A stretch of DNA of 64,000 bases from Acidimicrobiales bacterium (GTDB lineage: Bacteria; Actinomycetota; Acidimicrobiia; Acidimicrobiales; GCA-2861595), in NCBI GenBank assembly GCA_035536185.1, contig DATLOM010000008.1, positions 32,400 to 96,399 of the forward strand, given 5' to 3'. Shown piece by piece: positions 1,764 through 60,467 of the stretch; position 1 is the first letter of the stretch, and every line of letters starts with the position of its first letter. Both the position numbers and the translations under genes were made by a program. Below the pieces are notes generated by a model that was not told where the DNA came from, ran no database searches, and saw only the letters and a program-made list of their open reading frames with translations.

Positions 1764-1767
1764 GCCC

Positions 1768-4253: not shown

Positions 4254-4279
4254 ACGTCAGTCACCTCTACAGTTCCGAC

Positions 4280-4591: not shown

Positions 4592-4664
4592 GCGGGCACC
4601 GGCATCACGTGCGGCAGCGAGGCGCCACCCCTATCATCGTGGCTGGAACTTCTGGAGGTGGCAG

Positions 4665-5042: not shown

Positions 5043-5075
5043 CTCTGCCGGCGGCGTGGCCGTAGGCGGCCGCCC

Positions 5076-6227
5076 ATGAGGCCGGCCGGCAAGAGCTCCC
5101 CCACCCGGACAACTCTTCCGGACGCGCGCGAGGACCGACTGTTCTTCGCCCAGGTGCGCGAAGACCCTTGCGTCGAGCTGGAAGCACTGCAGGTCAAGCC
5201 GACGGACACGGTCGTGGTCGTCAGCTCCGGCGGCTGCACGGCGCTGTCCCTTCTCGCCGCCGGCGCAGGCCGCGTGGTGGCCGTCGACCTCAATGCCGCC
5301 CAGAACCACCTGGTGGAGCTGAAGGCCGCTGCCCTGGCGGAGCTGGAACCCGCCGAAGCCGTCGCCTTCCTCGGTGGATGGAAAGCCACGTCCGCCTCCC
5401 GGCTCTCCTCCTACGAGGAGCTGCGCCACCGGCTGTCCCCTGTCGCCGCCGCCTATTGGGACGGGCGCCGCTCCAACATCGCGGGAGGGGTGCTGAACGC
5501 CGGAGTGAGCGAGCGCTTCATCTCCGTCATCACCGCGGTGATCCGGAAGGCCATCCACCGGCCGCCCCGGATCCGCCGGCTCCTCTCGTGCCGGTCCCTC
5601 GACGAGCAGAAGCAGCTGTACGAACTCGAGTGGGACAACCGGCGCTGGCGGCTTCTGTTCAAGGCCCTGCTCAACCGCGCCGTCTTCCGCCACACCTACG
5701 ACCCGGCCTTCTTCCGCCACGTCGACAACCCAAGCTTCGCCACGCACTTCCACGGCCTGATCGAGCACGTTCTCGTCGACGTTCCCGTCAAGGACAACTA
5801 CTTCGTCCACCACATGCTCACCGGGTCGTACCCGAAGGACGAGCCGAACGGCCTGCCCCCCTACCTCCAGGCCGAAGGCGCATCGACCGCCGCAGGCCGG
5901 CTCGACCGCCTCACGCTGGTGGACGGCGCCTACCTCACATACCTGCAGTCGTGCCCCGACGCCGGCATCGACGCCTTCACGCTCTCCAACATCTGCGAGT
6001 GGCTGGACGCCGCCCAGCTGGACGAGCTGTTCGGCGAGATCGTCCGAACCGCGGCACCCGGAGCCCGCCTGGTGTTCCGAAACTTCGTGGGCTGGACGGA
6101 GGTGCCCGAGCGGTGGAGGGACCTCGTCGTCGAAGATCGCGCCCGCGGGGAGGAGCTGATCGCCGGCGACCGCAGCGGGGTGCAGCGGCGGGTGGCCGTG
6201 TGCCGGATCGTCTCGCCGGATCGCTGA
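5076..6227 (+). CDS. DUF3419/BtaA-family SAM-dependent 3-amino-3-carboxypropyl transferase-like protein
   Basis: FAQVREDP, SSGGCTALSLL, VAVDLNAAQ-HL-ELK and LSNICEWL patterns typical of DUF3419. Confidence 0.78.
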   Translation: MRPAGKSSPTRTTLPDAREDRLFFAQVREDPCVELEALQVKPTDTVVVVSSGGCTALSLLAAGAGRVVAVDLNAAQNHLVELKAAALAELEPAEAVAFLGGWKATSASRLSSYEELRHRLSPVAAAYWDGRRSNIAGGVLNAGVSERFISVITAVIRKAIHRPPRIRRLLSCRSLDEQKQLYELEWDNRRWRLLFKALLNRAVFRHTYDPAFFRHVDNPSFATHFHGLIEHVLVDVPVKDNYFVHHMLTGSYPKDEPNGLPPYLQAEGASTAAGRLDRLTLVDGAYLTYLQSCPDAGIDAFTLSNICEWLDAAQLDELFGEIVRTAAPGARLVFRNFVGWTEVPERWRDLVVEDRARGEELIAGDRSGVQRRVAVCRIVSPDR

Positions 6228-14400: not shown

Positions 14401-14929
14401 CGTGGAACTTGCGGACGTAGAAGTCGGCCACCACCGCGTCCACCACGTCCCTCGGGTCCTCGACGAAGGTGACGTCCCGGTCGACGTCGCCGGCCACGCC
14501 CAGGCCGTTGAGGACGTGGTGGCAGAACTCATGGGTGGTGGCGATGGTGGCGGCGTCGAAATCGGCGAGTGCCGCGGCCAGCCTCCGCCGGCGCACCTCG
14601 ACCTCGGCCGGGGGCGCGGTGGCGAGCAGGGCCACCACGCCGTCGTCCTCGTCGGGAAGGGCGCCCGTAGCTGCCGATGCCAGCCCCCTCTCCGTCCTCA
14701 CCAGCCGCTCACGGACCCGGTCGCGGAGCTCCCCCGTGGCCATGCGGGTGAAGGTCATGACCAGGAGGTGCTCGAGCGGGGTTCCCTCGGCCACGTAGCG
14801 GGCGGCGAGGGCGGCGATGGTGAAGGTCTTGCCCGTGCCGGCGCTGGCTTCGAGGACGGTCACGCCGGTGGGGAGGCGGCCGCAGACATCGAACTCCTCC
14901 ACCGCCTCGATGTGGGGCGGAGCGGTCAC
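11441..14929 (-). CDS. recB: Exodeoxyribonuclease V beta subunit
   Basis: EASAGTGKT, LVDEFQDTD, IGDPKQAIYAFRGAD and TIHRSKGLEF, plus C-terminal nuclease motifs GSLDL and DYKTN. GTG start at 14929. Confidence 0.95.
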   Translation of the reverse strand: MTAPPHIEAVEEFDVCGRLPTGVTVLEASAGTGKTFTIAALAARYVAEGTPLEHLLVMTFTRMATGELRDRVRERLVRTERGLASAATGALPDEDDGVVALLATAPPAEVEVRRRRLAAALADFDAATIATTHEFCHHVLNGLGVAGDVDRDVTFVEDPRDVVDAVVADFYVRKFHGAGNPPFDLREALRIAHTAVANHDAFLEPTGAPPGSVADMRRRLATAVRQEVDRRRRLAAVLTYDDLLTRLRATLADPVRGEIACRRLSERYRVALVDEFQDTDPVQWEILRRAFAGGASTLVLIGDPKQAIYAFRGADVYAYLQAAREAGSRATLAVNWRSDQALIDAYDALFGGARLGHDEISYRRVRAAPLNQEPRLVGAPGAALRVRIVHRASSGVALTPKGYLKVKAAREHVADDLAGDVVRLLASGAHLRRRAEREAGVAGEPRAAGPAGAAEEAAVPVRPGHVAVLVPRHRDAALVRDALQAVGVPAVINGAGSVFATPMATEWLRFLEALERPTAAYPAHAAALTVFLGWRAERVATAADEEWESLHSRLHRWAGVLRRRGVASLLQTVTHAEGLPARMLARTGGERELTDLRHVGQLLHAEATAEQLGVTALTGWLRQRIAGAATDGDAEDRARRLESDAEAVQVLTIHRSKGLEFPVVYCPYLWDPGWNDPREPPMYHDPGAGDRRTLDVGGPDAPRFLDHLWRHATERRGEELRLVYVALTRAEHQAVVWWAGTWESGSSALCRLLFCASETGEVAAAADETPEDRAVVQRFSELAEQAPGCISVERSGGGAAAGWAGDTVEPGELEAAAFDRALDPLWRRTSYSGITARAHEELPAVASEPEEPAMTDEVLVGPVRAGAAVDGGGPGTSAEELRLRAVPSLLAAMPGGVGPGTFVHSVLEGLDFTSAELDGDLAACVERERAGSAIEIGDPAQVAEGLRAAIDTPLGPLVGDIRLRDIARGDRIDELAFELPLVGGDAPTGGLSVIQIAALLRAHLAPGDALAGYADLLEDPSLEDGLRGYLSGSLDLVFRTSSAGGIPRFAVVDYKTNRLGGSGEDLSAWHYRPAALVEAMYRSHYPLQALLYTAALHRYLRWRLPGYSAEDNLAGVLYLFVRGMSGEATPRVDGRPCGVFAWHPPPALVEALSDLLDQGTPA

Positions 14930-17900
14930 TCGTCGACCACCGCCTCGCACGACAACAGCCCTTGCCACAACTTGACGGCGTAGCCCCCGAAGCGGCTGGT
15001 CTCACCGGCGGGCCAGAGCTCGTCCTGCTCGTCCGGGCGGGGCGGAGCCTCCAGGACGTCGTCCAGGGTACGGACGCCGCCGAGCACCAGGACGTGGGCA
15101 GGGTCCTTGTCCTCCTTGTCGAACTTGGCCGATGTCCACGCCTCGGCCGCCGCCGCCCGGGCCCCGGACCCGGTGTCGCCAGAGCCGCCAGAGGCGGCCG
15201 CCCTGGCGGCGGCCGCATAGGCCGCAGACGTGGCGCAGTAGATCGGCAGGGGCTCACGCATCCCCCGGTCGTAGAGGTCCACCAGCGCCACCAGGTGCTC
15301 CAGGGCCCGCTGGCGGCGGGCAGCGGGCGTTCCCTCGAAGGCGGCGACGGCTGATCTGGTGATGGAGCATCTCCAGCTGGCGCCGACCCGGCGCCGGCCG
15401 AGGGTGAGGGCCTCACGAGCGGCGCCGGGCACGGCCGCGGTGAGGGCGAGGTACTGCGCCCATGCGGCCAGGCGGTGCTTCGGACCGACGCGGGAGAAGG
15501 TGACGGCCCGCAGAACGTTGCCGGTGACGCCGGCGACGGTGCCGCTCAGCAGGCGCCCGTCCGGGAGCGGGAGGTGGATCTCCACCGAGGTCGGCTCCGT
15601 GGCCGGCGAGCCGGGGCCGGTGCTGGCAGCGGCGACGAGCATCTCGACGGCGGGGCCGAGGGCGTCGAGGACGGTGGCGGCCAGGGCGCCGGGGGGCAGG
15701 GCGCCCCGGGCCACTTCGGCGGCCACGCACTGCTCCGGGCCGGCGCCGGTGAGGCGAGCCTGGAGGAGGCGCTCCCCCACCCCCCATCTCTCCAGCGCAT
15801 CGAGCTCGACCGGTAGCTCGTCGTGAAGGTCCTGGGACCGGTCGCCCATGGCGACGCCGAGGCGCTGGCGCAGGAAGGCCTTCACCGGGTGCTGGAGGAA
15901 GCGAACGAGCTGCTCCAGCTCGACGACCGGCACCGGCGGCACCGGCAGGGGGCCGGCCACGAAAGCAGCTGGCTCGACCCGGTCGTTCTGGAGGGCGCGC
16001 GCGCCGGCCAGCGAGACCGTGTCGAAGCTCCAGCTTCGATCCGGGACGAGCCGCCCGACGGCGAAGTTCCGGGCGTCGAAAGGCTGCAGCGGATGGTGCG
16101 TCACGACCTGGCGGCGGGCCGCCGGCGCCGCCGTGGCGTCCACCAGATCGAGCAGCTCGCCCACCGGCACCGCGGGCGGGCGCTCGGCGTTGGTGCGCTC
16201 GTCACGGCCGGTGTAGGTGATGACGAGGTGGTCGGTGGCGGCGAGCAGGGCGTCGAGCAGGAGCTGGCGATCCTCGCTACGGGCGTCACGGTCGCCGACG
16301 TACGGATCGTCGAGGATGAGGTCGTCGCCGTCGCGGGTCGTGCGCCGGGGGAACATGCCGTCGTCGAGGCCGAGCAGGCAGACCACGCGGTGGGGCACGG
16401 AGCGCATCGGTACGAGCGTGCAGACGGTGAGATGGCCCGTGCGGAAGTTGGCCCGGGTCGGGCGGCCCCGGAGCCTGTCGGCCAGCAGCGCCCGCACCTC
16501 GGGCAGGGTCAGCTCCGCCGTACTCGTCGCCCCCTCGGCCGTGGCCTCGCCGACCACCTCGTCGAGGAGCCGCCGGAGCTGTACCCGCTGCCAGGAGTCG
16601 TCCTCGGAGGTGTCGGTCAGCTCGTCGACGGCGGCGGTGATGGCCTCGGTCCAGTCGTGCAGGAGCTGCGGCCCGCCGAGGCCGGCGAGGCACGCCTGCA
16701 GGCGGTCGAGGAGCTCGGCGAGACGGCCTGCGAGGCCGATGACGCCGCTGTCCACGTCGTCGAGGGGCAGGACGTGGCCGAACAGGCGCTGGCCGTCCTC
16801 CGCCATGGCCGCCCCCACCAGCACCCGGTCGAGGCCGGCCCGCCACGTGTTGGCCGCGACACCCTCGAGCTTGAACGGCGCTCGATGGGCGGCGTCCAGC
16901 CCCCACCGGACGCCGGACGCCACCACCCATTCCTCGATGCGGGCAAGGTCCTCGTCGTCGAAGCCGAAGCGCCGGCGGACAGGATCCCGGCCGGCCAGGT
17001 CGAGCACCTGGGAAGCGGTCACTCGGGCGTCGGCCAGGGCCAGGAGCTCCGACACCGTGGCCAGTACCGGGTTGGTCTGCCGCAGGGACCGGTCGGCCAG
17101 GCGCACCCGCAGGTCGGCCCCGTGGTGCCCGCCGGCCTCACCCTCCTCCTCGATGGTGGCGCCGCCGGCGCCGGTCCCGGTCCCGAAGGTGGCATGGACC
17201 AGCGGCGCGAAGGTCTCGATGTCAGGGCACATGACGATGACGTCCCGAGCCTCGAGCGTCTCGTCCTCGGCCAGCAGGTGCAGGATGGCGTCCCGGACGA
17301 CCTCGACCTGCCGGGCCCGCCCATGGCAGGCGTGGACCTGGATGCTCCGGTCGTCCGGCAGGAGCGGCGCCCGGGCATCCTCCTCGCCGGGAAGCGGAGC
17401 CCCGGGCGGGGCGCGGTCCGCCCGGATGTCGGCCTGGACACGCTGGAGGAGGGTTCCTACGGGAATCTCGAGCCCGTGGTGGTGGTCGACCGGATCGACA
17501 GGGTGGCCACCGGTGAGCACGAGCTGCATCTCCCGGGCATCACGGCCCCACGAGGCGAGCAGGGGATGCGCCGGCAGGGCGGTGGTGTGGTCGTCCCGGC
17601 GTCGTACCACCGGTGCCTCGACCCGCGCCTGCTCGGCGATGCGCTCCCACAGCACCGGTGACGGGTGGAGCAGGAACAGATGGACGTCCCGCTCCTCGGC
17701 CAGGGCCCGCAGGACCTGGAGGGAGCTGGTCGCCAGGCGGGTCAGGCCGAACAGCGACAACCGGTCTGGCAGGTCGCACAGCGAGGGCTCGGCCCGTAGG
17801 CGGGCACAGGCGGCTTCGAGCCGCTCAGCCGCGCTGTCGGAACCGATGCGGGAGCGAAGGCACCGCCACAGCTGGGCCTGCCAGGCGGTGTCGTCCGGGA

Positions 17901-18429
17901 GGGGCCGACCGGCACCGTCGAGGTCGTCGCCGACCGCCCACCACCGCAGCATCTCGGGACGGTGCACGGAGTAGCGGTCGAAGAGGTCGGCTATGTGGCG
18001 GACGGCGCTGAACCGCCGGATGCGCCTGCTGTCGCCGGCGCCGTTGTCCGGGCCGGCCCCGCCGAGGTGGGCAGCCAGCGGCGCCAGCCACGGCTCGGGC
18101 AGCGCTTCGTCCACCACTTCGAGCAGCGGCCAGACCGACCGCTCGGGCAGCCACGGGTCAGCCTCGGGGTCGACCCCGGTTGCCGCAGCCACCGCCCCGC
18201 CCACGAGGCGGCCGGGGAAGGGGAGCTCGAGGTTGGCGCACACGCCGTCGGAGCGGCCGGGGGTCACGCCCAGGCGGGCGGACAGCCGCTGGGTGAGCCA
18301 TCTCTCGACCCCACGGGTGGGGACGGCGACGACCTCGGTCTCCATGGGGTCCGCCAGCGGCTCGGACAGAAGGCCGGCGAGGCCCTCCACGAGCCCGTCG
18401 GCCCGCTCCGCCCGGTGGATGTGCAGCAT
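14926..18429 (-). CDS. recC: Exodeoxyribonuclease V gamma subunit
   Basis: From ATG 18429 (MLHIHRAERAD). Contains HACHGRARQVEV, VMCPDIETFAP, TLVPMRSVPHRVVCLLG and HPLQPFD. Confidence 0.93.
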   Translation of the reverse strand: MLHIHRAERADGLVEGLAGLLSEPLADPMETEVVAVPTRGVERWLTQRLSARLGVTPGRSDGVCANLELPFPGRLVGGAVAAATGVDPEADPWLPERSVWPLLEVVDEALPEPWLAPLAAHLGGAGPDNGAGDSRRIRRFSAVRHIADLFDRYSVHRPEMLRWWAVGDDLDGAGRPLPDDTAWQAQLWRCLRSRIGSDSAAERLEAACARLRAEPSLCDLPDRLSLFGLTRLATSSLQVLRALAEERDVHLFLLHPSPVLWERIAEQARVEAPVVRRRDDHTTALPAHPLLASWGRDAREMQLVLTGGHPVDPVDHHHGLEIPVGTLLQRVQADIRADRAPPGAPLPGEEDARAPLLPDDRSIQVHACHGRARQVEVVRDAILHLLAEDETLEARDVIVMCPDIETFAPLVHATFGTGTGAGGATIEEEGEAGGHHGADLRVRLADRSLRQTNPVLATVSELLALADARVTASQVLDLAGRDPVRRRFGFDDEDLARIEEWVVASGVRWGLDAAHRAPFKLEGVAANTWRAGLDRVLVGAAMAEDGQRLFGHVLPLDDVDSGVIGLAGRLAELLDRLQACLAGLGGPQLLHDWTEAITAAVDELTDTSEDDSWQRVQLRRLLDEVVGEATAEGATSTAELTLPEVRALLADRLRGRPTRANFRTGHLTVCTLVPMRSVPHRVVCLLGLDDGMFPRRTTRDGDDLILDDPYVGDRDARSEDRQLLLDALLAATDHLVITYTGRDERTNAERPPAVPVGELLDLVDATAAPAARRQVVTHHPLQPFDARNFAVGRLVPDRSWSFDTVSLAGARALQNDRVEPAAFVAGPLPVPPVPVVELEQLVRFLQHPVKAFLRQRLGVAMGDRSQDLHDELPVELDALERWGVGERLLQARLTGAGPEQCVAAEVARGALPPGALAATVLDALGPAVEMLVAAASTGPGSPATEPTSVEIHLPLPDGRLLSGTVAGVTGNVLRAVTFSRVGPKHRLAAWAQYLALTAAVPGAAREALTLGRRRVGASWRCSITRSAVAAFEGTPAARRQRALEHLVALVDLYDRGMREPLPIYCATSAAYAAAARAAASGGSGDTGSGARAAAAEAWTSAKFDKEDKDPAHVLVLGGVRTLDDVLEAPPRPDEQDELWPAGETSRFGGYAVKLWQGLLSCEAVVDE

Positions 18430-18526
18430 TTTCGACCTGACCTCCAGCTCCCGCGGAACCATACAGACGAGCCGTGACACCAACCGGCTGCGCGCCGCCG
18501 CCGGATGCGCTGCTGGAGGTGGTGCG

Positions 18527-19492
18527 TCAGCCCGCGCCGGCGGCCCCGGCGGCGCCATCGAGGCCCTTGAACAGCTCCTTGATCCCGCCGAGCGCCCCGA
18601 ACATGGCGGTGGACTCGGTCGGCAGGAAGATCTTCGTGGCCCGGCCGTCAGCCACGATGCCCAAGGTCTCCAGGTACTTGATGGCGATGAGGTCGGCCGA
18701 TGGGTTCCCGTCGTGAATGGCACCGAACACGTTGCGGATGGCCTCGGCCTCACCCTCGGCCACCGCCACCTGGCGGAACCGCTCGGCATCGGCCGCTGTC
18801 CTGGTCGCCTCGGCGTCGCCCTGGGCGCCGAGGATGGCGCTCTGCTTGAGGCCTTCGGCGGAAAGGATGGCCGCCTGCTTCTCGCCCTCGGCCCTGGTGA
18901 TGGCGGCCTCGCGAGCGCCCTGGGCCTCGGTCACCACCGCCCGCCGCGTCCGCTCGGCCTTCATCTGCTCGTGCATGGCGTGCATGACGTCCACCGGCGG
19001 GTCGATCCGCTGGATCTCCACCCGCACCACCCGCGTGCCCCACTTGTCGGTGGCGTCGTCGAGGATGTCGCGCAGCCTGGTGTTGATGGTGTCCCGGGAG
19101 GTGAGCGCCTGGTCGAGCTGCATGTCGCCCACGACGTTGCGGAGGTTGGTCTGGGCCAGCTTGCTGACCGCCAGGTAGAAGTCGACCACGTTGTAGACCA
19201 GGCGCTGGGGGTCGGTGGCCTCGTAGTAGATGACGGCGTCCACCGACACGACGACGTTGTCGGAGGTGATGACCTCCTGGGGCGGCACGTCCACCACCCG
19301 CTCGCGCATGTCCACCCGCTCCATGCGTTCGATGAAGGGGATGATCACCCGCAGGCCGGGCTGGACGGTGTCGCGGTACTTGCCCAGCCGCTCGACGAGG
19401 CCCCGCTCATAGGGGCGGATGATCTTGACGCCGCTGACCACCACCACGAACAGCACGAAGGCGAGGGCGGCGAGCACTATTACGAAGGCCAT
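18527..19492 (-). CDS. SPFH/stomatin-like protein (QmcA family)
   Basis: N-terminal [29 protein letters not shown] coiled coil. Confidence 0.9.
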
Positions 19493-45596: not shown

Positions 45597-46088
45597 TTGG
45601 ACGCCCTGACCTCTTTCGAGGACTTCCACAGACAGAGAGCCAAGCATGCCCTTCACTACGCCCGCGCCATCCTTGGTTCAGATGCCGCCGAGGACGTCTG
45701 CCAGGAGGCCTGGTTCAAGGCGTGGCGGGCTTGGGGATCGGCTGATCCGGCCAAGCTCGACCCGTGGCTCATCGCCATCGTGCGCAACTGCTGCTTCGAG
45801 CGCCTCCGGGCGACCCGCCCCGTCTCCACTCTCGACGAGCACGATCTCGCGCCCGTCCCGCCGGCCGACGAGGTCGTGGTCGCCGCCCTCGAGCTGGCGG
45901 CCGCCTGGGTCCTGCTGCAGCGTCTCGCACCCCCCCTGCGAGAGGTGCTGTGGCTGCGCGAGGTCATGGACCTGTCGTACGAGGAGATCGCCAACGTCCA
46001 GCAGGTCCCCAAGGGGACGGTGATGTCTCGCCTCCATACCGCCCGTAAGAAGGCGGTCCGCCTGCTGGGTGAACGGAACGCACCGTGA
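45597..46088 (+). CDS. ECF (sigma-24 type) RNA polymerase sigma factor
   Basis: AEDVCQEAWFKAW, WLIAIVRNCC, LSYEEIA and GTVMSRLHTARKK motifs. Confidence 0.9.
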   Translation: MDALTSFEDFHRQRAKHALHYARAILGSDAAEDVCQEAWFKAWRAWGSADPAKLDPWLIAIVRNCCFERLRATRPVSTLDEHDLAPVPPADEVVVAALELAAAWVLLQRLAPPLREVLWLREVMDLSYEEIANVQQVPKGTVMSRLHTARKKAVRLLGERNAP

Positions 46089-47497
46089 TCCGGCGCCATC
46101 CCCACAAGTTCGCCATCGCCGCCTGGTTCGACGGCGAAGGCTCCGAGAGCGTCGGCGGCCATGTCGCCCGCTGCGGCCGCTGCCGGCGTCACGCCGCTGA
46201 GCTGGCCCGTGTGAGGTCATGGCTACGGGCTCAGCCTTTCGTCGCCATGACCGACGACGTAGACGAGCCTGGCCGGTCGAAGCACCGCTGGCGGCCGGTG
46301 ATGGTCGTGGCCCTGCTGCTGTTCGCCTACCTGATCGCCCCCAGCCGGGACGACGGCAACCTCGGTCGCTCCCCCCGTGGCCCGATGGGTGCCTTGGGCG
46401 GTGGCGGCCCGGAATCCGGGTCTCCCCCGCCGCCGGCGGCCGATGAGCCGGGCGACCCCGGCGCCTCCGGTACCCCCGAGGGCGACGCGCCCGCCCCACC
46501 CGCCGCTACCCGCAGCGCCAGCGGTCCCACCGCCGACAACGAGGTCGCCGCCGGGGTGGTCCGCCGCTCCGCCGCCAACTCACCGCTCACGCTCGGCCTG
46601 ATCGTCCCCACGTCGGGGCCTCTGGGCCGTGAGGGCGTCGAGGTCCGCGAGGTGGTCCAGCGCCGGGTTCAGGCCGCGAACGCGTCGGGCGGTGTGGCGG
46701 GTCTGCCCGTCGAGCTGGTCGTCGCCTCCGCTGAGGACCCCAAGGCCATCGGGGCCATGGCCGGTGCGGTCGACGCCATCGTCGGTGGCTTCGGCGCCGA
46801 CGTCACGACGGCGACTCCGTGGATCTTCCCCGCCGACCCATTGGTCGCGGGAACGAACGTGGTTCCCGCCGAAGCTCCGGCCCGGGCCGTCGGGGCCCAG
46901 CTGGCCGCCGAGCTCAGGGACCAGGGGCCGTTCGGCCTGGTGGGGGTGGTCGTCGGAACGGGCCCCGACTCGGCCATGGCCGCCGGCCTGGCGTCCAAGG
47001 CCAGCGTCACCACCGTGACGGCGAAGAAGAACACCTCGTGCCTGGGTGAGATCGCCACCTTGCGCCGCTCGGGGGCCATGATCCTCGCCGTGGCCGGCGA
47101 CAGCGATCTCGCCGCCAACTGCATCCGTGCCGCGGCCCGCTCACCCTGGCACGCACGCCTGGGGCCGCTCGTCGCTCCCTCTGCCGCCTACGCCGGCGTC
47201 GCCTCGCTTCCCGAGGCCACCGGTGCCCGCACGGTGCTCGCCCTGCCGTGGCCCACGTCGTCGGCCCCAGGCGCAGCCCGCTTCCGGGCCACCACCAGCT
47301 CCGAGTCCTACCGGGCCCTCGTCTCCTATGCCGCCACCGAGCTGGCCATCGACGTGGCCCGCCAGACCGGCACCGTGTCGCCGGCTTCGATGGCCGGTCG
47401 CACCTGGCACAGCGACCTGGTCGAGCTGAACGGTGTCGTGAACAGGCCGGGCAGCATCGCCTCGGCCCTGTTCGGAGCCTGGATCGCCTCTCCCTAG
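46085..47497 (+). CDS. Zinc-finger anti-sigma factor fused to an extracytoplasmic type I periplasmic-binding-protein-like domain
   Basis: ZAS motif HVARCGRC, one TM helix, Pro-rich linker, then LGLIVPTSGPL...NASGGVAGLPVELVV (Leu/Ile/Val-binding-protein-like start). Overlaps the sigma stop. Confidence 0.7.
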   Translation: MIRRHPHKFAIAAWFDGEGSESVGGHVARCGRCRRHAAELARVRSWLRAQPFVAMTDDVDEPGRSKHRWRPVMVVALLLFAYLIAPSRDDGNLGRSPRGPMGALGGGGPESGSPPPPAADEPGDPGASGTPEGDAPAPPAATRSASGPTADNEVAAGVVRRSAANSPLTLGLIVPTSGPLGREGVEVREVVQRRVQAANASGGVAGLPVELVVASAEDPKAIGAMAGAVDAIVGGFGADVTTATPWIFPADPLVAGTNVVPAEAPARAVGAQLAAELRDQGPFGLVGVVVGTGPDSAMAAGLASKASVTTVTAKKNTSCLGEIATLRRSGAMILAVAGDSDLAANCIRAAARSPWHARLGPLVAPSAAYAGVASLPEATGARTVLALPWPTSSAPGAARFRATTSSESYRALVSYAATELAIDVARQTGTVSPASMAGRTWHSDLVELNGVVNRPGSIASALFGAWIASP

Positions 47498-47588
47498 CAT
47501 CGGGGACCGGCGCCGGCGCCGGTCGCCGAGCGGGTCAGGCCCCGGTCAGGCCGGGAAGCCAAGCGGTCCGTTGCGGTAGACAGAAGCC

Positions 47589-49973
47589 ATGATCGGTGAC
47601 GCCCTGGACGGCGCGCGCATCGCCATCACCGGCGCCACCGGCTTCCTCGGCACCGCCCTGGTCGAACGCCTCTTGCGGTGCGTGCCGGGCTGCCAGCTGG
47701 TGCTGCTCATCCGTCCCGGCCGGCGTACACCGGCCGCCGAGCGGGCCAGGCGAGAGGTTTTCCGCAACGACTGCTTCGACCGGCTGCGAGCCGAGCACGG
47801 AGAGAACTTCGACGCCGAGATCAAGCGCCGGGTCGTGGTCGTGGGTGGCGACGTGGCCACCGACGGGCTGGGGCTCGACGACGAGGGGCGCTCGCAGATC
47901 GCCGCCTGTGACGTCGTGATCCACGTCGCCGCCGCCGTCAGCTTCGACTCACCGCTCGACGCCGCCGTCGAGGTCAACCTCCTCGGCCCCGCCCGCGTAG
48001 CCGGCGCCATCGCCGCCACCGGGTCCAAGGCCCATCTCGTGGCCGTGTCCACCGCCTACGTCGCCGGCACCAGACGGGGCCGTTCGCCCGAGGCCCTGCT
48101 GGCCGATACGCCCTTCGCGTCGGAGGTGAGCTGGCAGGGCGAGGTGGACGCCGCCCGGCGCGCCCGGGGCGACGCCGACGCGGCCAGCCGCGCACCGAAG
48201 CGCCTGGCCGGCTTCGCCAAGAAGGCGCGGAGCGAACTGGGTGCCGCGGGATCGCCGCTGTTGGCCGAGAAGCTGGAGAAGCTGCGCGTGGCGTGGGTGA
48301 CCGACACCATGGTCGAAGCCGGGCGGGCCCGGGCCAAGGGCCTCGGCTGGCCCGACGTGTACGCCTACACCAAGGCGCTGGGCGAACGGGCTCTCCAGGA
48401 CGCCTGCACCGAGGGTGGCGTGGCCTTCACCATCGTGCGCCCGTCGATCATCGAGTCCGCCCTCTCGGAGCCGAAAGCCGGGTGGATCCGGGGGTTCCGG
48501 ATGGCCGAGCCCGTGATCATCTCCTACGGGAGGGGGCTGCTGAAGCAGTTCCCTGGGATCCCGGAGGGCGTGGTCGACGTGATCCCTGTCGACCTCGTCG
48601 TGGCCATATTGATCGCCGTGGCCGCCCGCGGCCCTGCGCCGGAGGGCCCCGACGTCTTCCAGGTGGCTTCCGGCGAGCGCAATCCTCTCCGCTACCGCCG
48701 GCTCGTCAACCTCGTGCACACCTGGTTCCGGGAGAACCCGCTGGACGACACCTCGGGCCCGCCGATAGTCGTGCCCGAGTGGTCCGTCCCCGCCCGCGGG
48801 CGGGTGCCGCGCCAGCTGGTCCGCGCCACCCGGGCCCTCTCTGCGGCCGAGCGGGTCGTCGGTGCCCTTCCCATCCGCGGCCGCCAGGCCGAGCTGTCCT
48901 CCAAGTTCGAAGAGCGACGATCAGAGGCCGAGCGGGCGCTGGGTTACGTCCAGCTCTACGGCGCCTACGCCGAGACAGAGGCCGTCTTCGCCGTCGACCG
49001 CCTCGTCGCTCTGTGGGAGTCCCAGTCCCCCGAGGACCAGGCCATGTTCGGGTTCGACCCGGCCGTCATCGACTGGGCCCACTACGTGCGCAACGTGCAC
49101 CTGCCCTCCATCGTGTCCAACTCGCGGGTCCGCACCACGGCCGGCCGCAAGACCACCGCCACCCGCCAGGAGCGGGGCCGCAAGGCGGTACTCGCCCCGG
49201 CCCGCCACATGGCCGCCTTCGACCTGGAGAACACCCTCATCGCCTCCAACGTGGTCGAGTCGTACGCCTGGCTGGCCACCCGCCACCTGCCGGTGGACGA
49301 GCGGGTGCAGTTCAGCCTGCGCACCCTGCGCGAAGGTCCCTCCCTTCTCGCCCTGGACCGCCGGGACCGGGGCGACTTCCTGCGCCACTTCTACCGTCGC
49401 TACGAGGGGGCGTCGGCCGAGCAGCTGTTCACCGACTCCTGGGAGATGTTCAGCTCGCTGATCCTGGCCCGCTCCTTTCCCGCCGGGATCCGCCGTATCC
49501 GTGAGCACCGGGCGCTGGGCCACCGCACCGTCCTGATCACCGGGGCCCTCGACTTCGTGGTCGCTCCCCTGCGCCCGCGGTTCGACGACATCGTGTGCGC
49601 CAGCCTCGGCCAGGATGCCGACGGGCGCCTGACCGGCGAGCTGCTGGCCGGCCCGCCCACGGGCGAGGCCCGCACCCTGGTCATGGCCGCCTATGCCGAA
49701 GCCGAGGGGCTGCGGCTGGAGGAATCGGTGGCCTACGCCGACTCCGCTTCGGACCTGCCGATGCTCGAGGCCGTCGGGTTCCCCGTGGCCGTCAACCCCG
49801 AGGCCAAGCTGGCCACCATCGCCCGCAAGCGGGGCTGGCACGTGGAACACTGGGCCTCGGCTCCGGGCTTCGCCAAGCAGCGGCTGCCGATCGGGCCCCT
49901 TCTCCGCCCGGGGGCCAACAGCCGGCGCACGTCGCCCGTCCTGCACTCGGGCAACGCCGGAGGCGAACGTTGA
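47589..49973 (+). CDS. Fatty acyl-CoA reductase (male-sterility extended SDR) fused to a HAD-IB hydrolase
   Basis: TGATGFLG, HVAAAVSFD, VSTAYV, YAYTKALGE and VRPSII in the N-terminal part. AFDLENTL, LITGA and AYADSASDLPML in the C-terminal part. Confidence 0.85.
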   Translation: MIGDALDGARIAITGATGFLGTALVERLLRCVPGCQLVLLIRPGRRTPAAERARREVFRNDCFDRLRAEHGENFDAEIKRRVVVVGGDVATDGLGLDDEGRSQIAACDVVIHVAAAVSFDSPLDAAVEVNLLGPARVAGAIAATGSKAHLVAVSTAYVAGTRRGRSPEALLADTPFASEVSWQGEVDAARRARGDADAASRAPKRLAGFAKKARSELGAAGSPLLAEKLEKLRVAWVTDTMVEAGRARAKGLGWPDVYAYTKALGERALQDACTEGGVAFTIVRPSIIESALSEPKAGWIRGFRMAEPVIISYGRGLLKQFPGIPEGVVDVIPVDLVVAILIAVAARGPAPEGPDVFQVASGERNPLRYRRLVNLVHTWFRENPLDDTSGPPIVVPEWSVPARGRVPRQLVRATRALSAAERVVGALPIRGRQAELSSKFEERRSEAERALGYVQLYGAYAETEAVFAVDRLVALWESQSPEDQAMFGFDPAVIDWAHYVRNVHLPSIVSNSRVRTTAGRKTTATRQERGRKAVLAPARHMAAFDLENTLIASNVVESYAWLATRHLPVDERVQFSLRTLREGPSLLALDRRDRGDFLRHFYRRYEGASAEQLFTDSWEMFSSLILARSFPAGIRRIREHRALGHRTVLITGALDFVVAPLRPRFDDIVCASLGQDADGRLTGELLAGPPTGEARTLVMAAYAEAEGLRLEESVAYADSASDLPMLEAVGFPVAVNPEAKLATIARKRGWHVEHWASAPGFAKQRLPIGPLLRPGANSRRTSPVLHSGNAGGER

Positions 49974-51139
49974 GGGCGCTGCTGTTCGAGCGCTCCCTTC
50001 CCCGCTTCGCCGCGGCCAAGCTGGCGTCCGCCGTCGCCGCCGGCCGTGGAGCCCGCGTCGGGCCGCTCCGGCTGGCCGAGGTGGAACCGCCGGCGCTTCC
50101 CGGCCCGGGATGGCACCGCCTCACTCCCCGCCTGGCCGGGATCTGCGGGTCCGACCTGGCCACGGTCGACGCCCGCAGCAGTCGCTGGTTCGAGCCCATC
50201 GTCAGCTTCCCGTTCGTGCCCGGTCACGAGGTGGTGGGTGACCTGGAGGACGGCCGGCGGGTCGTGCTCGAGCCGGTGCTCTCCTGCGCGGCCCGAAACA
50301 TCGTGCCGCCCTGCCCCGGCTGCGCCCGGGGCGACAACGGCTGCTGTGAGCGGATCGCCTTCGGGTGCCTGCAGCCCGGTCTCCAGACCGGCTACTGCGC
50401 CGACACCGGTGGTGGGTGGTCCGCCGCCCTGGTGGCCCACGAGAGCCAGCTCCACGAAGTGCCGGAGGACACGAGCGACGAGGCCGCGGTCATGGTCGAG
50501 CCGGCGGCCTGCGCCGTCCACGCCGTGCAGGCGGCGGCCATCACCGACACCGACACCGTCGTCGTGCTCGGTGCCGGCACCCTCGGCCTGTGCACCGTCG
50601 CCGCCGTTCGCCATCTCGCCAGTCCCGGCGCCGTGATAGCCAGCGCCAAGCACCCCGAGCAGCGCCGCTTGGCCGTGGAGCTGGGTGCCGGCGCCGTGGC
50701 CGCCCCCTCCGAGGTGCGCCGGGCCGTTCGCCGCCAGACGCGGTCGCTGGCCATGGACGGCCGCCTCACCGGCGGCGCCGACATCGTCATCGACTGCGTC
50801 GGCAGCGAGTCGTCGCTCGCCGATGCCCTCGCCGTCGTCCGCCCCCGCGGGACCGTGGTGCTCGTGGGAATGCCCGGACCGGTGAACGTCGACCTCACTC
50901 CCCTGTGGCAACGGGAGATCCGCCTCGTGGGCTCCTACGCCTACCGCCACTCCACCTTCGCCACGGCCTTCGAGCTGGTGGCCTCGGCGAAGCTCGAGCG
51001 CCTGGTCTCGGCGGTCTACCCGCTGGAGGAGTGGCGGGACGCCCTCGACCACGCCGTGCACTCCGGACCGCGAGGCGCGGTGAAGATCGCTTTCGACCTC
51101 CGCCTCCGCCCCCCCAGAAAGGCCGTTTCAACCTCCTAA
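49970..51139 (+). CDS. Zinc-dependent medium-chain dehydrogenase
   Basis: TTG 49970 overlapping the upstream stop. GICGSD, GHE, structural Cys cluster C..CPGC..C, EPAAC and GAGTLG. Confidence 0.87.
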   Translation: MRALLFERSLPRFAAAKLASAVAAGRGARVGPLRLAEVEPPALPGPGWHRLTPRLAGICGSDLATVDARSSRWFEPIVSFPFVPGHEVVGDLEDGRRVVLEPVLSCAARNIVPPCPGCARGDNGCCERIAFGCLQPGLQTGYCADTGGGWSAALVAHESQLHEVPEDTSDEAAVMVEPAACAVHAVQAAAITDTDTVVVLGAGTLGLCTVAAVRHLASPGAVIASAKHPEQRRLAVELGAGAVAAPSEVRRAVRRQTRSLAMDGRLTGGADIVIDCVGSESSLADALAVVRPRGTVVLVGMPGPVNVDLTPLWQREIRLVGSYAYRHSTFATAFELVASAKLERLVSAVYPLEEWRDALDHAVHSGPRGAVKIAFDLRLRPPRKAVSTS

Positions 51140-52725
51140 TGTCCAGGCCCGGGTTCGTCCTCGACGTGGATCGGTCCACGCCCCCACTGCTGTTCTGGCA
51201 CGGTGAGAAGTTCAAGATGGAGCGGCTGCCGGCCGGGTCCAGGGTGATCTACCCGCCTGAGCCGGTGAAGGCGCTGGATGATCCCGACGCCGCCATCCGC
51301 CACGCCCTGCTCAACCCCACCGGCGACAGCGCACCCCTGCCGGTGCTGCTGAAGCCCGGGATGCGCCTCACCATCTGCTTCGACGACGTTTCGCTCCCGC
51401 TGCCGCCCATGCGGCGCCCCGACGTGCGCCAGCGGGTGATCGAGGCCGTCCTCGACCTGGCCGCCGATGCCGGCGTGGACGACGTCGTCCTCATCGCCGC
51501 CCTCGCCCTCCACCGGCGCATGACCGAAGCCGAGCTGCGCCACGCCCTCGGCGACCGCGTCTACGACGCCTTCGCCCCCTCCGGCCACCTCACCCAGCTC
51601 GACGCCGAGGACCCCGAGGCGATGATGCACCTCGGCACCACCGATCGCGGCGAGGACGTGGAGATCAGCAAGCGGGCGGCCACCAGCGACCTCATCGTGT
51701 ACGTCAACATCAACCTGGTGGCCATGGACGGGGGCCACAAGAGCGTGGCCACCGGCCTCGCCTCCTACCGGTCGCTCAAGCACCACCACAACGTGGCCAC
51801 CATGTTGAAGAGCAAGTCCTTCATGGACCAGCACCACTCCGAGCTGCACTCGAGCAACTGGCGGATGGGCCGCCACATCGCCGCCTCCGGGATCAAGATC
51901 TTCCAGATCGAGACCACCCTCAACACCGACACCTTCCCCGAGCAGTTCTCCTTCCTGCAGCGCCGGGAATGGGAGTGGGGGGCCAAGGACCGGGCGACCT
52001 TCCTCGGCGTCAGCCGAGCCCTGGACCGCACGCCCGCCCGCCTGGCCCGGTCCATCTTCCACGGGATCAAGTCGCCCCACCAGATGGCCAGTGTCCAGGC
52101 CGGCGAGGTGGAGGCCGTTCACAAGCTGACCACCGAGAACCTCTACCGCCAGCAGCTGGTGGAGGTGCAGGGCCAGACCGACGTGCTGATGATGGGCCTG
52201 CCCTACATCAGCCCGTACAACGTGAACTCGATCATGAACCCGATCCTGGTGGCCTGCCTGGGCCTCGGCTACTTCTTCAACCTCTACCGGGGAAAGCCGC
52301 TCGTTCGGGAAGGCGGCGTGCTGATCCTGCGCCACCCGACACCGTGGGCCTTCCACCCGGTGCACCACCCCAGCTACATCGACTTCTTCGAGGAGGTGCT
52401 GGCCGAGACGACCGATCCCCTCAAGATCGAAGCCGACTTCGAGGAGCGTTTCGCCACCGACCCCTGGTACATCCACCTCTACCGCACGAGCTACGCCTAC
52501 CACGGCGTCCACCCCTTCTACATGTGGTACTGGTGCGCCCACGCCCTGTCCCATCTGGGTGGAGTCATCGTGGTCGGGGGCGACGTGAAAGCCGTGCGCC
52601 GCATGGGCTTCAAGCCGGCATCCACGATGCAGGACGCCCTGGAGATGGCCGGCGACGTGGTGGGACGGGACCCGTCGATCACCTACCTGCACGCCCCGCC
52701 GCTGCTCATGGCCGACGTGAAGTGA
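51139..52725 (+). CDS. Lactate racemase (LarA/DUF2088) domain protein
   Basis: ATG 51139 overlapping TAA. ICFDDVSLP, ALALHRRMT and DGGHKSVATG align with LarA N-terminal motifs. Confidence 0.75.
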   Translation: MSRPGFVLDVDRSTPPLLFWHGEKFKMERLPAGSRVIYPPEPVKALDDPDAAIRHALLNPTGDSAPLPVLLKPGMRLTICFDDVSLPLPPMRRPDVRQRVIEAVLDLAADAGVDDVVLIAALALHRRMTEAELRHALGDRVYDAFAPSGHLTQLDAEDPEAMMHLGTTDRGEDVEISKRAATSDLIVYVNINLVAMDGGHKSVATGLASYRSLKHHHNVATMLKSKSFMDQHHSELHSSNWRMGRHIAASGIKIFQIETTLNTDTFPEQFSFLQRREWEWGAKDRATFLGVSRALDRTPARLARSIFHGIKSPHQMASVQAGEVEAVHKLTTENLYRQQLVEVQGQTDVLMMGLPYISPYNVNSIMNPILVACLGLGYFFNLYRGKPLVREGGVLILRHPTPWAFHPVHHPSYIDFFEEVLAETTDPLKIEADFEERFATDPWYIHLYRTSYAYHGVHPFYMWYWCAHALSHLGGVIVVGGDVKAVRRMGFKPASTMQDALEMAGDVVGRDPSITYLHAPPLLMADVK

Positions 52726-53606
52726 GGCCGCTCCCGTTCCCGTTCACCGCTCCTACGTGGCCGCGGCAGATCCCCAAGCCGCCGCCGGTGCGGAACACCG
52801 GGGTCGATTACGACACGGCCTGGGCTCGCACGTACCCGGCCCGCTTCGCCCGGGCCCTCATCCTCGACGGCGTCACCCGGCCACTGGTGCACGCCCTGGC
52901 CGCGCCCAAGGTGGAGGGGCTGGACCGGATAGAGGCGATCCCCACCCCCGTCATCTTCGCCGTCAACCACAACAGCCACATCGACACGCCACTGGTGATG
53001 ACGTCGCTGCCCGAGAGGTTCCGCCACCGCACCGCCGTCGCCGCCGGCGCCGACTACTTCTTCGACAAGCGGGCCAAGGGTGCCGTCTGGGCCCTGTCCA
53101 TCAACGCCATCCCGATCGAGCGGGTCCGCGTCAGCCCCCAGTCGACCCGCCTGGCCACCGAGCTGCTCCGTGACGACTGGAGCCTCATCATCTTTCCCGA
53201 GGGTGGCCGCAGCCCCGACGGCTGGGGCCAGGCACACCGGGCCGGCGCCGGCTACCTATCGGTTCGCACCGGCATCCCCGTCGTGCCCGTTCATCTGGAG
53301 GGGACGAGGCGCATCCTCAAGAAGGGCGGCACCGGTGTCCGCCCGTCGTCCACCCGCGTAACCTTCGGTCATCCCCTGACTCCGGCCGAAGGTGAGGACG
53401 CCCGGGCCCTGGCCACCCGCATCGAGAACGCCATCTCCGTGCTGGCCGACGAGCAGGCCCATGGCTGGTGGGCGGCCCGCCAGCGGGCGGCCAGCGGCGC
53501 CACCCCCGCCCTGACCGGCCCCACCGGCCCCAGCTGGCGCCGCACCTGGGCCTTGAGCGAAGGCCGGCGCCGCACCACCCGCGAACACCGCTGGCCGCCC
53601 TCCTGA
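52722..53606 (+). CDS. Lysophospholipid/glycerolipid acyltransferase (PlsC family)
   Basis: NHNSHID (HX4D) and FPEGGRS motifs. GTGA overlap with the upstream stop. Confidence 0.9.
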   Translation: MRPLPFPFTAPTWPRQIPKPPPVRNTGVDYDTAWARTYPARFARALILDGVTRPLVHALAAPKVEGLDRIEAIPTPVIFAVNHNSHIDTPLVMTSLPERFRHRTAVAAGADYFFDKRAKGAVWALSINAIPIERVRVSPQSTRLATELLRDDWSLIIFPEGGRSPDGWGQAHRAGAGYLSVRTGIPVVPVHLEGTRRILKKGGTGVRPSSTRVTFGHPLTPAEGEDARALATRIENAISVLADEQAHGWWAARQRAASGATPALTGPTGPSWRRTWALSEGRRRTTREHRWPPS

Positions 53607-53775
53607 CCCCTAGTCAGCATCGGCGGGCGGCGCTACACTCCTCGTTCAGCAAGACCGGGGCGGTACCCGTGGCAATGGCGCCTCCTCCCGCTCGACTTCC
53701 TTCAATGGAGAAGGTGCCCCGGTGAATCCCAACCCGACCAGCCCGAACCGTCCCACTGAAAGTTCGAGGTGACCC

Positions 53776-58190
<4,415 letters not shown>

Positions 58191-58194
<4 letters not shown>

Positions 58195-60467
58195 GCGCCT
58201 CAGAGGCGACGTCGACCCCGGTGGAGGTGGAGGCGGCCCACCGCCGCCTGGCTGCCGGCGTGGCCGTGCTCCGCCGCGATCTGGCCCGCCCGCTGACTCT
58301 CACCGAGAAGATCCTCGGCGGCCACCTGGTGGATCCCTCGGCCTGCCCCAAGTCGCGGGGTACGTCGTACTGCGAGCTGATGCCGGACCGGGTGGCGATG
58401 CAGGACGCCACCGCCCAGATGGCGCTGCTGCAGTTCATGACCGCGGGCCTTCCCGAGGTGGCGGTACCGACCACGGTCCACTGCGACCATCTCATCGCCG
58501 CCCGTTCCGGCGCCCACGCCGATCTGCTGGCCGCCGTGGAGACCAACGAGGAGGTCTACGACTTCCTGCGGACCGTGTCGGCCAAGTACGGCATCGGCTT
58601 CTGGAAGCCGGGCTCGGGCATCATCCACCAGGTCGTCCTGGAGCAGTACGCCTACCCCGGAGGCCTGCTGATCGGGACGGACTCCCACACTCCCAACGCC
58701 GGCGGGCTGGCCATGCTCGCCATCGGCGTGGGCGGAGCAGACGCCGTGGACGTCATGGTGGGAACGCCGTTCGGCTTGCGCTGGCCCACCATCATCGGCG
58801 TGCACCTCACCGGCTCCCTCAACGGCTGGGCCGCGCCGAAGGACGTGATCCTGAAGGTCGCCGATCTTCTCTCGGTGAGCGGCGGCACCGGAGCCATCGT
58901 CGAGTACTTCGGCGAGGGGACCGAGTCCATCAGCGCCACCGGCAAGGCGACCATCTGCAACATGGGCGCCGAGGTGGGCGCCACCACCTCGGTCTTCCCC
59001 TACGACCGGAAGACGGCGGGGTATCTCGCGTCCACCGGCCGCAGGGCGATCGCCGACCTGTGCGACCTGGCCCCCGAGGACCTGCGCCCGGACCCCGAGA
59101 TCGCCGGCGACCCCGAGCGCTACTTCGAGCGGGTGGTCGAGATCGACCTCACCACCCTCGAGCCCCACATCAACGGCCCCCACACCCCCGACCTGGCCCG
59201 CCCCGTCTCCGAGATCGGCGACGAAGCCAGGAAGAGCGGCTGGCCCCTGCACATCAGCTCGGCCCTGGTCGGCTCGTGCACCAACTCCTCCTACGAGGAC
59301 ATCACCCGCGCCGCCCATGTGGCCCGCCAGGCCGGCGCCAGGGGCCTACGGGTGAAGACCCCGCTCCTGGTGACCCCCGGCTCGGAGCGGGTCCGGGCGA
59401 CCATCGAGCGCGATGGCCTGCTCGCCGACCTGGAGGGCATCGGGGCCACCGTCCTGGCCAACGCCTGCGGCCCCTGCATCGGCCAGTGGAAGCGAGAGGA
59501 CGTGGCCGAGGGCGAGGCCAACGTGATCGTCACCTCGTACAACCGCAACTTCCCCCGCCGCAACGACGGCATGGCCAGCACGCTGGCCTTCGTGGCGTCA
59601 CCCGAGACCGTCGTGGCCTACGCCCTTGCCGGCACGCTCGACTTCAACCCCCTCCTGGACGGCCTCGACGGCGAAGGCAACGGGATCCACCTCGACGCCC
59701 CCGACGGGCAGGAGCTGCCCGCCCTCGGGTTCGAGCCGGCGGGAACAGGGTTCGAGGCGCCAGCGGCGAACAGCTGGGCGGTGGAGGTCGTCGTCAAACC
59801 CGACAGCGACCGCCTCCAGCTGCTCGAGCCCTTCCCGGCCTGGGACGGCAACGACTTCGTGGACCTTCCCGTCCTGCTCAAGGCATCGGGCAAGTGCACC
59901 ACCGACCACATCTCGGCTGCCGGCCCGTGGTTGCGTTACCGGGGCCATCTCGAGAACATCTCCCGCAACCTCTTCCTCGGCGCCGTCAACGCCTTCACGT
60001 CCGAGCCCGGCACCGGCTACTGCCCGGTGCACGCCGGGGCCGTCGAGCCACTTCCCGATGCCGCCCGCCATTGCCGCGATGCCGGCGTGGCCTGGGCCGC
60101 GGTGGGCGACGCCAACTACGGGGAAGGGTCCTCCCGCGAGCACGCGGCCATGGAGCCCCGGCACCTCAACGCCAAGGCCGTCCTGGTGCGGTCGTTCGCC
60201 CGGATCCACGAGACCAATCTGAAGAAGCAGGGCGTCCTCCCGCTCACCTTCGCCGACGAGACCTCCTACGACCTCATCGGCCCTCACGACCGGCTCTCCA
60301 TTCTCGACCTCGCCAGCCTTGCTCCCGGCCGTCCCGTGCGCTGCATGGTCACCCGGCCCGGTGGCGAACAGGTCGGCTTCGAATGCACCCACACCATGTC
60401 GGAGGAGCACCTCGATTGGTTCCGGGCCGGCGGGGCCCTGAACGTCATCCGGGCCCGGCAGAGCTGA
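58191..60467 (+). CDS. Aconitate hydratase (short, mitochondrial-like type)
   Basis: DRVAMQDATAQMA, HCDHLI, GSCTNSS, ANACGPCIGQW and KCTTDHISAAG motifs; 758 aa. Confidence 0.92.

Follow-up and report, generated by a model that had tools for sequence, protein, structure and literature searches.

In Myxococcus xanthus, ether lipid synthesis has been linked to the elb cluster (Lorenzen et al. 2014, as reviewed in PMC9131029). The locus (MXAN_1531-1527) encodes a short-chain dehydrogenase/reductase (SDR; ElbA), a HAD protein (ElbB), a Lar_N protein (ElbC), ElbD and a second SDR (ElbE). ElbD (MXAN_1528) is a row of fatty acyl reductase (FAR), AMP-binding, PP-binding and acyltransferase domains, while ElbC (MXAN_1529) is a LarA homologue that lies between ElbB and ElbD. 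In the review, the neighbours of elbD are elbE and elbC, the latter given as of "unknown function" (PMC9131029). Disruption of elbD strongly lowered both the alkyl and the vinyl ether lipids, and disruption of AGPS had a minor effect (PMC9131029). At issue is the chemistry by which aerobic bacteria that lack AGPS form the ether bond of alkylglycerol lipids, for which ElbD is known to be required. Here we analyse a 64,000-nucleotide stretch (hereafter the window) from an Acidimicrobiales bacterium (GenBank assembly GCA_035536185.1, contig DATLOM010000008.1, positions 32,400 to 96,399), in which four genes encode a FAR fused to a HAD phosphatase (gene 1), a Zn dehydrogenase (gene 2), a LarA homologue (gene 3) and an acyltransferase (gene 4). 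Judged by sequence, this operon very probably corresponds, in its actinobacterial form (LarAH group 14), to the M. xanthus elbB-elbC-elbD module.

The operon type itself is already on record, since its family, residue pattern and neighbourhood were tabulated in 2020 and the elb cluster was described in 2014. In the supplement of Desguin et al. 2020 (Sci Rep 10:18123), MXAN_1529 belongs to group 15 of the LarA homologues (LarAH), with COG0451, COG0560 and COG1022 as neighbours. Group 14 of the same work comprises proteins from Frankia (Franean1_4168, 'LarAH14'), Ilumatobacter (YM304_22240), Kribbella and Rubrobacter (Rxyl_2107), with COG0204, COG0560, COG1063 and COG3320 as neighbours. The window operon shows no essential difference from this group: the family, the neighbours and the residue pattern (D, L/I, H, no His174, K, H) are the same. 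Note that Desguin et al. 2020 list this gene context without a link to ether lipids. In the literature available to us we found no paper linking lactate racemase or DUF2088 to ether lipids or to ElbD, and the proposed functional link between LarA and ether lipids therefore seems to be unpublished or little noticed.

A second close relative is found in Rubrobacter radiotolerans (CP007514.1, about 1.98-2.00 Mb; locus L091, 3841-9581), which carries plsY-FAR/HAD-ZnADH-LarAH. The order is shared with the window, and the proteins are 39% (FAR-HAD), 47% (Zn dehydrogenase) and 55% (LarAH) identical. The acyltransferase differs. In R. radiotolerans, as also in locus L128, a PlsY-type acyl-phosphate:glycerol-3-phosphate acyltransferase is encoded upstream (in R. 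radiotolerans 2 nt before FAR-HAD) and no PlsC-type gene follows, whereas the window has a PlsC-type enzyme downstream. Mixed ether/ester lipids reportedly predominate in the order Rubrobacterales (Sinninghe Damste 2023, Syst Appl Microbiol 46:126404). The presence of plsY in the Rubrobacter form points to glycerol-3-phosphate, rather than dihydroxyacetone phosphate (DHAP), as the backbone. The study of Rubrobacterales lipids is also said to mention a putative operon resembling elb.

Finally, the eukaryotic/myxobacterial route through FAR1, GNPAT, AGPS and alkyl-DHAP reductase resembles the operon in having a fatty-acyl reductase, a backbone acyltransferase and a candidate keto-reductase. Unlike that route, the operon has a putative nickel-pincer enzyme and no AGPS-type flavoenzyme. 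Moreover, neither the AGPS-type domain FAD-oxidase_C (PF02913) nor HGD-D (PF06050), the BcrAD-type reductase domain of the anaerobic PlsA/Ger route, was matched in the whole 95%-complete assembly (about 3.0 Mb in 79 contigs; its closest relatives by protein carry the label Acidimicrobiales). Thus, if ether lipids are made in this organism, the operon is the only recognisable candidate.

Homology to elb and conservation of the operon

The operon shares with the M. xanthus cluster an ElbC-type LarA, an ElbB-type HAD, a FAR and a PlsC-type acyltransferase, encoded by co-directional, tightly packed genes. Pairwise BLASTP comparisons confirmed this. Gene 3 is 48% identical to ElbC along its full length, over 523 aa, and gene 4 is 37% identical to residues 1259-1389 of ElbD (E 5e-19). 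The two parts of gene 1 match different Elb proteins, the HAD part ElbB (36% identity, E 2e-36) and the FAR part residues 9-539 of ElbD (30%, E 2e-43). When the Elb proteins were searched against the host genome, ElbB, ElbC and the ElbD reductase each gave one match, which was the operon gene, and the best match of the ElbD acyltransferase domain was gene 4. The best match of the ElbD synthetase domain lies 45 kb away, at 2685-4151 of the window (32% identity), and corresponds to an AMP-binding ligase gene (2721-4253, - strand). The SDRs ElbA and ElbE had only weak matches, elsewhere in the genome.

What distinguishes the two systems is how these activities are divided among the proteins. The reductase is fused to the HAD phosphatase in the window and to the synthetase, carrier and acyltransferase in ElbD; the acyltransferase, a domain of ElbD in M. 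xanthus, is a free gene in the window. The operon is in this sense a minimal form of the elb gene set, with four genes and neither a synthetase nor a carrier domain. An original prediction, made from the DNA sequence without database searches, had proposed exactly such a rearranged elb-like operon, with a reductase-HAD fusion, a free acyltransferase, no synthetase or carrier domain and an added Zn dehydrogenase. The domain content bears out this repartition, the BLASTP matches establish the homology of the LarAH, HAD, FAR and acyltransferase to ElbC, ElbB and the ElbD domains, and the reciprocal search that it had proposed returned the operon genes as the only or best matches. It had also named, with reserve, a HAD hydrolase and a LarA/DUF2088-like protein as neighbours in elb; these are indeed present beside ElbD, as ElbB and ElbC (MXAN_1529).

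Conservation of the gene order, on which the prediction also depended, was assessed at two scales. First, we collected 80 related loci from species genomes labelled Acidimicrobiales or unclassified Actinomycetota. The order FAR > HAD > ZnADH > LarAH > acyltransferase was kept in all 63 Acidimicrobiales loci with enough sequence on both sides, and the flanking genes differed. Second, 401 genomes sampled evenly across the phylum were searched, a carrier being a genome with a LarAH above the curated cut-off, and one locus was taken for each of 17 family codes. The same five-domain order was present in 16 of the 17. The remaining one is Rubrobacter-like and reads plsY-FAR/HAD-ZnADH, a gap, and then LarAH. 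Since the order is constant while the flanking genes vary, the arrangement is no product of chance, and the predicted co-occurrence of the four genes elsewhere is upheld. Carriers made up about a quarter of the sample (98 of 401 genomes). Among the operon genes, that for LarAH is the best conserved: its median identity is 76%, compared to 54-68% for the others. Note that the window copy is one of thousands, as 6,267 related cluster representatives were found at E <= 1e-10.

Domain searches gave a consistent picture for gene 1. Residues ~1-510 constitute a fatty acyl-CoA/ACP (acyl carrier protein) reductase, with a Pfam match to NAD_binding_4 (PF07993; 1.1e-57, 195.6 bits), GATGFLG at 15 as the Rossmann motif, YAYTK at 258, and a match to the fatty acyl-CoA reductase of PDB 7eoz (E 4.8e-61). 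NAD_binding_4, GxxGxxG and YxxxK, by which a FAR is recognised, are thus all present; the C-terminal Sterile match (PF03015; 4.2e-8, 33.7 bits) is below the Pfam cut-off of 35.4. Residues ~540-752 form a predicted ElbB-like HAD-IB phosphatase (HAD PF12710, 4.4e-24; TIGR01490 HAD-IB at 96.6 bits, just below the cut-off of 98.3). Its motif I, FDLENT at 544, retains the Asp nucleophile but has Glu as the second acid, a position at which the orthologues carry either Asp or Glu; ElbB has DVDGT. Motif IV reads DSASD at 718, and DSxSD is conserved in the orthologues.

Gene 4 matches the Pfam Acyltransferase domain (PF01553, 2.8e-17) and has the HX4D motif, as NHNSHID, together with FPEG at 158. The HX4D motif is kept in ElbD and in 20 of 21 orthologues, the exception being locus L138, with Asp at the second His.

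Gene 2 carries the Pfam domains ADH_N and ADH_zinc_N, and the motifs GICGSD at 57, GHE at 85, the Cys cluster CPGCARGDNGCC at 115 and GAGTLG at 201. Its nearest NCBIfam models are L-idonate 5-dehydrogenase and scyllo-inosose 3-dehydrogenase, all far below cut-off, and its nearest solved structures are ketose reductase, sorbitol dehydrogenase and threonine dehydrogenase. The substrate position attacked by these characterised relatives is a secondary alcohol of a polyol. By its sequence, the protein is of the polyol/threonine dehydrogenase type, with C2-specific polyol dehydrogenases as its closest relatives. Since these are polyol and threonine dehydrogenases, a role as fatty-aldehyde reductase seems less likely than one as glycerol C2 keto-reductase. 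Gene 2 had no counterpart among ElbA-E by BLASTP, and it is conserved within the operon at the related loci at 44-75% identity.

The LarA homologue and its putative cofactor

Gene 3 carries the Pfam domain Lar_N and matches the NCBIfam model NF052592 (LarAH14/15/16) with 894.7 bits, against a cut-off of 740, over model positions 1-520. NCBIfam names this family hydroxyacid isomerase. In a maximum-likelihood tree the protein groups with those of other Acidimicrobiales; the ElbC clade is monophyletic, and L. plantarum LarA is very distant from both. The AlphaFold model has the two-domain fold of LarA, with a predicted local distance difference test score of 91.7 and a predicted template modelling (TM) score of 0.91, and all 19 of its significant PDB matches belong to the LarA family.

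The closest solved structures (E 6e-34 by sequence) are those of LarA_Sp and LarA_Bw (PDB 9q2u, 9q3k and 9q3j; bioRxiv 10.1101/2025.08.19.671153), with 9q3k and 9q3j as the top fold matches (TM 0.78/0.86). Like gene 3, these are proteins of ~500 aa with a single histidine and an Asn at the position of His174; they bind the nickel-pincer cofactor. They differ in being 21-23% identical to gene 3, in belonging to a separate subfamily and in having a carbohydrate rather than a lipid gene context.

Alignment to L. plantarum LarA separated two sets of residues. The nickel-pincer residues are kept in gene 3 (Asp82/83, His125, Lys201 and His217), and the equivalents of LarA Asp72, His108, Lys184 and His200 are invariant in 28 sequences of groups 14 and 15. 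By contrast, the second catalytic histidine and the carboxylate binders are lost: His174 is replaced by Asn192, Arg75 by Leu, and both Tyr294 and Lys298 by Asn. Both groups share this property: every aligned group 14/15 protein has Asn in place of His174, one of Leu, Ile or Val in place of Arg75, and none of Tyr294, Gln295 and Lys298. Groups 14 and 15 were published as lacking His174, in agreement with this mapping. Moreover, the purified Frankia LarAH14 was inactive on every hydroxy acid tested (Desguin et al. 2020). Gene 3 is predicted not to be a 2-hydroxy-acid racemase.

The host genome holds the complete pathway for the nickel-pincer cofactor. LarB (232 bits) adjoins LarC (LarC1/C2) on contig C21 and LarE (289.9 bits) is on C55; gene 3 is the only Lar_N protein of this genome. 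In the phylum-wide sample LarC was enriched in carriers, being present in 87 of 98 compared to 188 of 303 non-carriers (p = 2e-7). In one sampled family (locus L132, 10579-12856), whose LarAH groups with Frankia LarAH14, the genes for LarE, LarB and LarC stand immediately after that for the acyltransferase. This layout joins cofactor synthesis to the lipid-type operon.

Because the cofactor residues and the lar genes are kept, because His174 and the carboxylate binders are lost, and because LarAH14 is inactive on hydroxy acids, the sequence and the model argue for gene 3 being a nickel-pincer enzyme that would abstract a hydride from a non-carboxylate substrate, and not a two-base racemase. 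Note that not every related protein belongs to a lipid-type operon. Loci L130, L140 and L141 (family codes f37, f30 and f36) form a separate, well-supported LarAH14/15-like clade at ~40% identity and ~420-540 bits, below the cut-off, and have no FAR, Zn dehydrogenase or acyltransferase neighbours.

Proposed product, mechanism and alternatives

By analogy with elb and from the predicted enzyme functions, we consider, with moderate confidence, the most likely products of the operon to be 1-O-alkyl-glycerol(-phosphate) ether lipids, formed by an AGPS-independent route; both the product and the assignment of the steps are what we infer from these likenesses. In the proposed pathway, the reductase domain would act on acyl-CoA or acyl-ACP to yield a fatty aldehyde or a fatty alcohol, and the PlsC-type acyltransferase (PlsY in Rubrobacter) would acylate glycerol-3-phosphate or a 1-alkyl intermediate. 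The nickel-pincer nucleotide tethered to the LarA homologue would accept the hydride at C2 from an intermediate derived from glycerol phosphate, and the transient 2-keto species could permit the C1 chemistry that leads to the ether bond. The Zn dehydrogenase would reduce a 2-keto (alkyl-DHAP-like) intermediate, and the HAD domain would remove a phosphate.

If this product is confirmed, the Acidimicrobiales and many Actinomycetota would become candidate sources of the monoalkyl glycerol ethers used as environmental biomarkers, and would add further exceptions to the bacterial/archaeal lipid divide. In any case, the operon provides a compact gene set for heterologous reconstitution and, in its invariant and best conserved partner, a nickel-pincer (LarA-type) enzyme without the residues for hydroxy-acid racemisation, a specific enzyme to assay.

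Several observations weigh against the ether lipid assignment and the part given in it to the LarA homologue. A phosphatase step is unnecessary for phospholipid synthesis. The Pfam searches revealed no AMP-binding or PP-binding domain in the operon, and ElbD has both. Moreover, where M. xanthus has two SDR epimerase-type genes, elbA and elbE, the window has instead an unrelated Zn medium-chain dehydrogenase. The genetics and biochemistry of elb itself also leave gaps: the effect of the elbB insertion was ascribed to polarity (PMC9131029), no elbC knockout was found in the literature consulted, and in vitro work failed to show either reductase or acyltransferase activity for ElbD and detected no fatty alcohol (PMC9131029). 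Finally, ten of the 98 carriers lack LarC (at E 0.01) and have LarB matches only of PurE level. These carriers have the family code f28 (G014, G074, G116, G183, G222, G321, G376, G387 and G287) or f40 (G365), and several of their assemblies have only 1-10 contigs. One of them, G014, has a complete operon (L129) with all the cofactor-binding residues kept. The absence of LarB and LarC in these carriers weakens a strict dependence on the nickel-pincer cofactor: either this clade gains the cofactor by another route, or it works without it.

How the ether bond itself would be made is the most tentative part of the proposal. The original prediction assigned the acyl-to-alkyl exchange to the LarA-fold protein, an assignment that is pure inference. 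LarA enzymes are, to our knowledge, hydride-shuttling nickel-pincer enzymes and not known exchange catalysts. A bolder possibility, which we regard as doubtful but worth stating, is that the ElbC/LarAH14-15 family supplies the enzyme for ether bond formation that is missing from the aerobic bacterial pathway without AGPS. In this scheme, 1-acyl- (or free) glycerol-3-phosphate would lend its C2 hydride to the tethered nickel-pincer nucleotide; the 2-keto intermediate, now activated at C1, would exchange or condense with the product of the fused reductase, a fatty alcohol or aldehyde; and the hydride would be given back, or be replaced by the Zn dehydrogenase. If true, this would be the first LarA-family reaction other than the racemisation of hydroxy acids, and the flavoenzyme AGPS would have a non-homologous substitute. 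About a quarter of the Actinomycetota would then be likely to contribute to the non-isoprenoid alkylglycerols that occur in soils and sediments.

Among the other explanations, the one that survives best is that the operon makes a different lipid without an ether bond, either derived from a fatty alcohol or acylated; examples would be a wax ester and an acylated head group of the polyol-phosphate or hydroxy-acid kind. The LarA homologue would then epimerise the polar moiety and the Zn dehydrogenase would act on that polyol. FAR enzymes are classic members of wax-ester pathways, as the match to PDB 7eoz recalls, but the operon has no wax synthase (WS/DGAT) gene, and its acyltransferase is of the PlsC type with HX4D, like the ElbD domain. 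The resemblance of the Zn dehydrogenase to sugar-alcohol dehydrogenases would suit a polyol substrate. All characterised LarA homologues are racemases or epimerases, in line with the NCBIfam name of the family; gene 3, however, has lost the carboxylate-binding residues and the second catalytic His needed for a two-sided proton transfer. Together with the genetic tie of the homologous elb cluster to ether lipids, and with the plsY gene of the Rubrobacter variant, which encodes a glycerol-3-phosphate acyltransferase, this makes a non-ether product unlikely.

A very unlikely explanation is an inversion of the lipid backbone, in which the LarA homologue would epimerise C2 of a glycerol phosphate or lyso-lipid to give sn-glycerol-1-phosphate-type lipids and the other enzymes would supply or trim the substrate. 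Such a reaction would suit LarA chemistry, in which a secondary alcohol carbon gives up a hydride and regains it, the substrate of gene 3 is clearly no carboxylic acid, and the M. xanthus ether lipid TG-1 has been named as a rac compound (PMC9131029). Nevertheless, a single catalytic His is left in gene 3, and Asn cannot serve as acid or base on the second face; the constant fusion or linkage to a fatty-acyl reductase would also be left unexplained. Least probable of all is that the LarA homologue has no redox role and is a scaffold or binding subunit, or binds another ligand, leaving the reductase and acyltransferase to make any ether bond alone: the ten carriers without LarB or LarC, and group 16 of Desguin et al. 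2020, which has the same gene context and has lost the cofactor-tethering Lys, would fit this, but Lys201, His217, His125 and Asp82/83 are invariant across groups 14/15, even at 48% overall identity, LarC is enriched in carriers, the lar genes are joined to the operon in one family, and no other operon gene is as well conserved as that of the LarA homologue.

Operon layout and surrounding genes

The four genes (Table 1) run on the + strand across 47589-53606, chained by the overlaps TTGA, TAATG and GTGA. The TGA stop of gene 1 sits in cgTTGAgg, where gene 2 starts at the TTG at 49970. The TAA stop of gene 2 (51137-51139) shares its last A with the ATG of gene 3, and the TGA stop of gene 3 (52723-52725) overlaps the GTG start of gene 4 at 52722. 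On re-reading of the starts and stops, the gene coordinates and the 1-4 nt overlaps given in the original prediction proved exact, and the Pfam and NCBIfam searches matched the domains that it had assigned to the four genes. We are practically certain that the operon is real, and we take its four genes to be translationally coupled. Chance adjacency and mis-called open reading frames were ruled out by the exact start/stop overlaps and by the synteny.

Table 1. Genes of the operon and its leader, in window coordinates
Feature	Position	Strand	Start and length	Assignment
leader	47498-47588	+	91-nt intergenic, 5' of gene 1	presumed operon promoter region
gene 1 (P0001)	47589-49973	+	ATG start, 794 aa	FAR fused to predicted HAD-IB phosphatase
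gene 2 (P0002)	49970-51139	+	TTG start, 389 aa	Zn-dependent medium-chain dehydrogenase
gene 3 (P0003)	51139-52725	+	ATG start, 528 aa	ElbC-type LarA homologue, LarAH group 14
gene 4 (P0004)	52722-53606	+	GTG start, 294 aa	PlsC/LPLAT-type acyltransferase

A scan of 47200-54000 revealed no promoter-like or terminator-like site, and none inside the operon; the leader had no sigma-70-like match. The absence of internal promoter-like or terminator-like sites is weak evidence for a single transcript. Control by a TetR regulator was rejected, since no TetR gene adjoins the operon. The genes upstream are that of an extracytoplasmic function (ECF) sigma factor (45597-46088), with Sigma70_r2/r4 domains, and a 470-aa gene (46085-47497) that overlaps it by 4 nt and has a weak match to periplasmic-binding proteins. 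This pair lies directly upstream of the operon and is not conserved at the related loci.

Downstream of the operon, and 170 nt from the end of gene 4, is gltB, the gene for the large subunit of glutamate synthase (53776-58194). It overlaps by 4 nt a 758-aa gene of the aconitase family (58191-60467), and not a gene for a gltD-type small subunit.

A possible second lipid-type group is located at 900-6227 of the window. It comprises an AurF-like di-iron oxygenase gene (900-1763, - strand), the AMP-binding ligase gene mentioned above and a DUF3419 gene (5076-6227, + strand). An NAD_binding_4 reductase just left of the window (G000:C8:31469-32149) belongs to the same possible group. Finally, a row of recD-recB-recC-type helicase/nuclease genes occupies 9222-18789 on the - strand.

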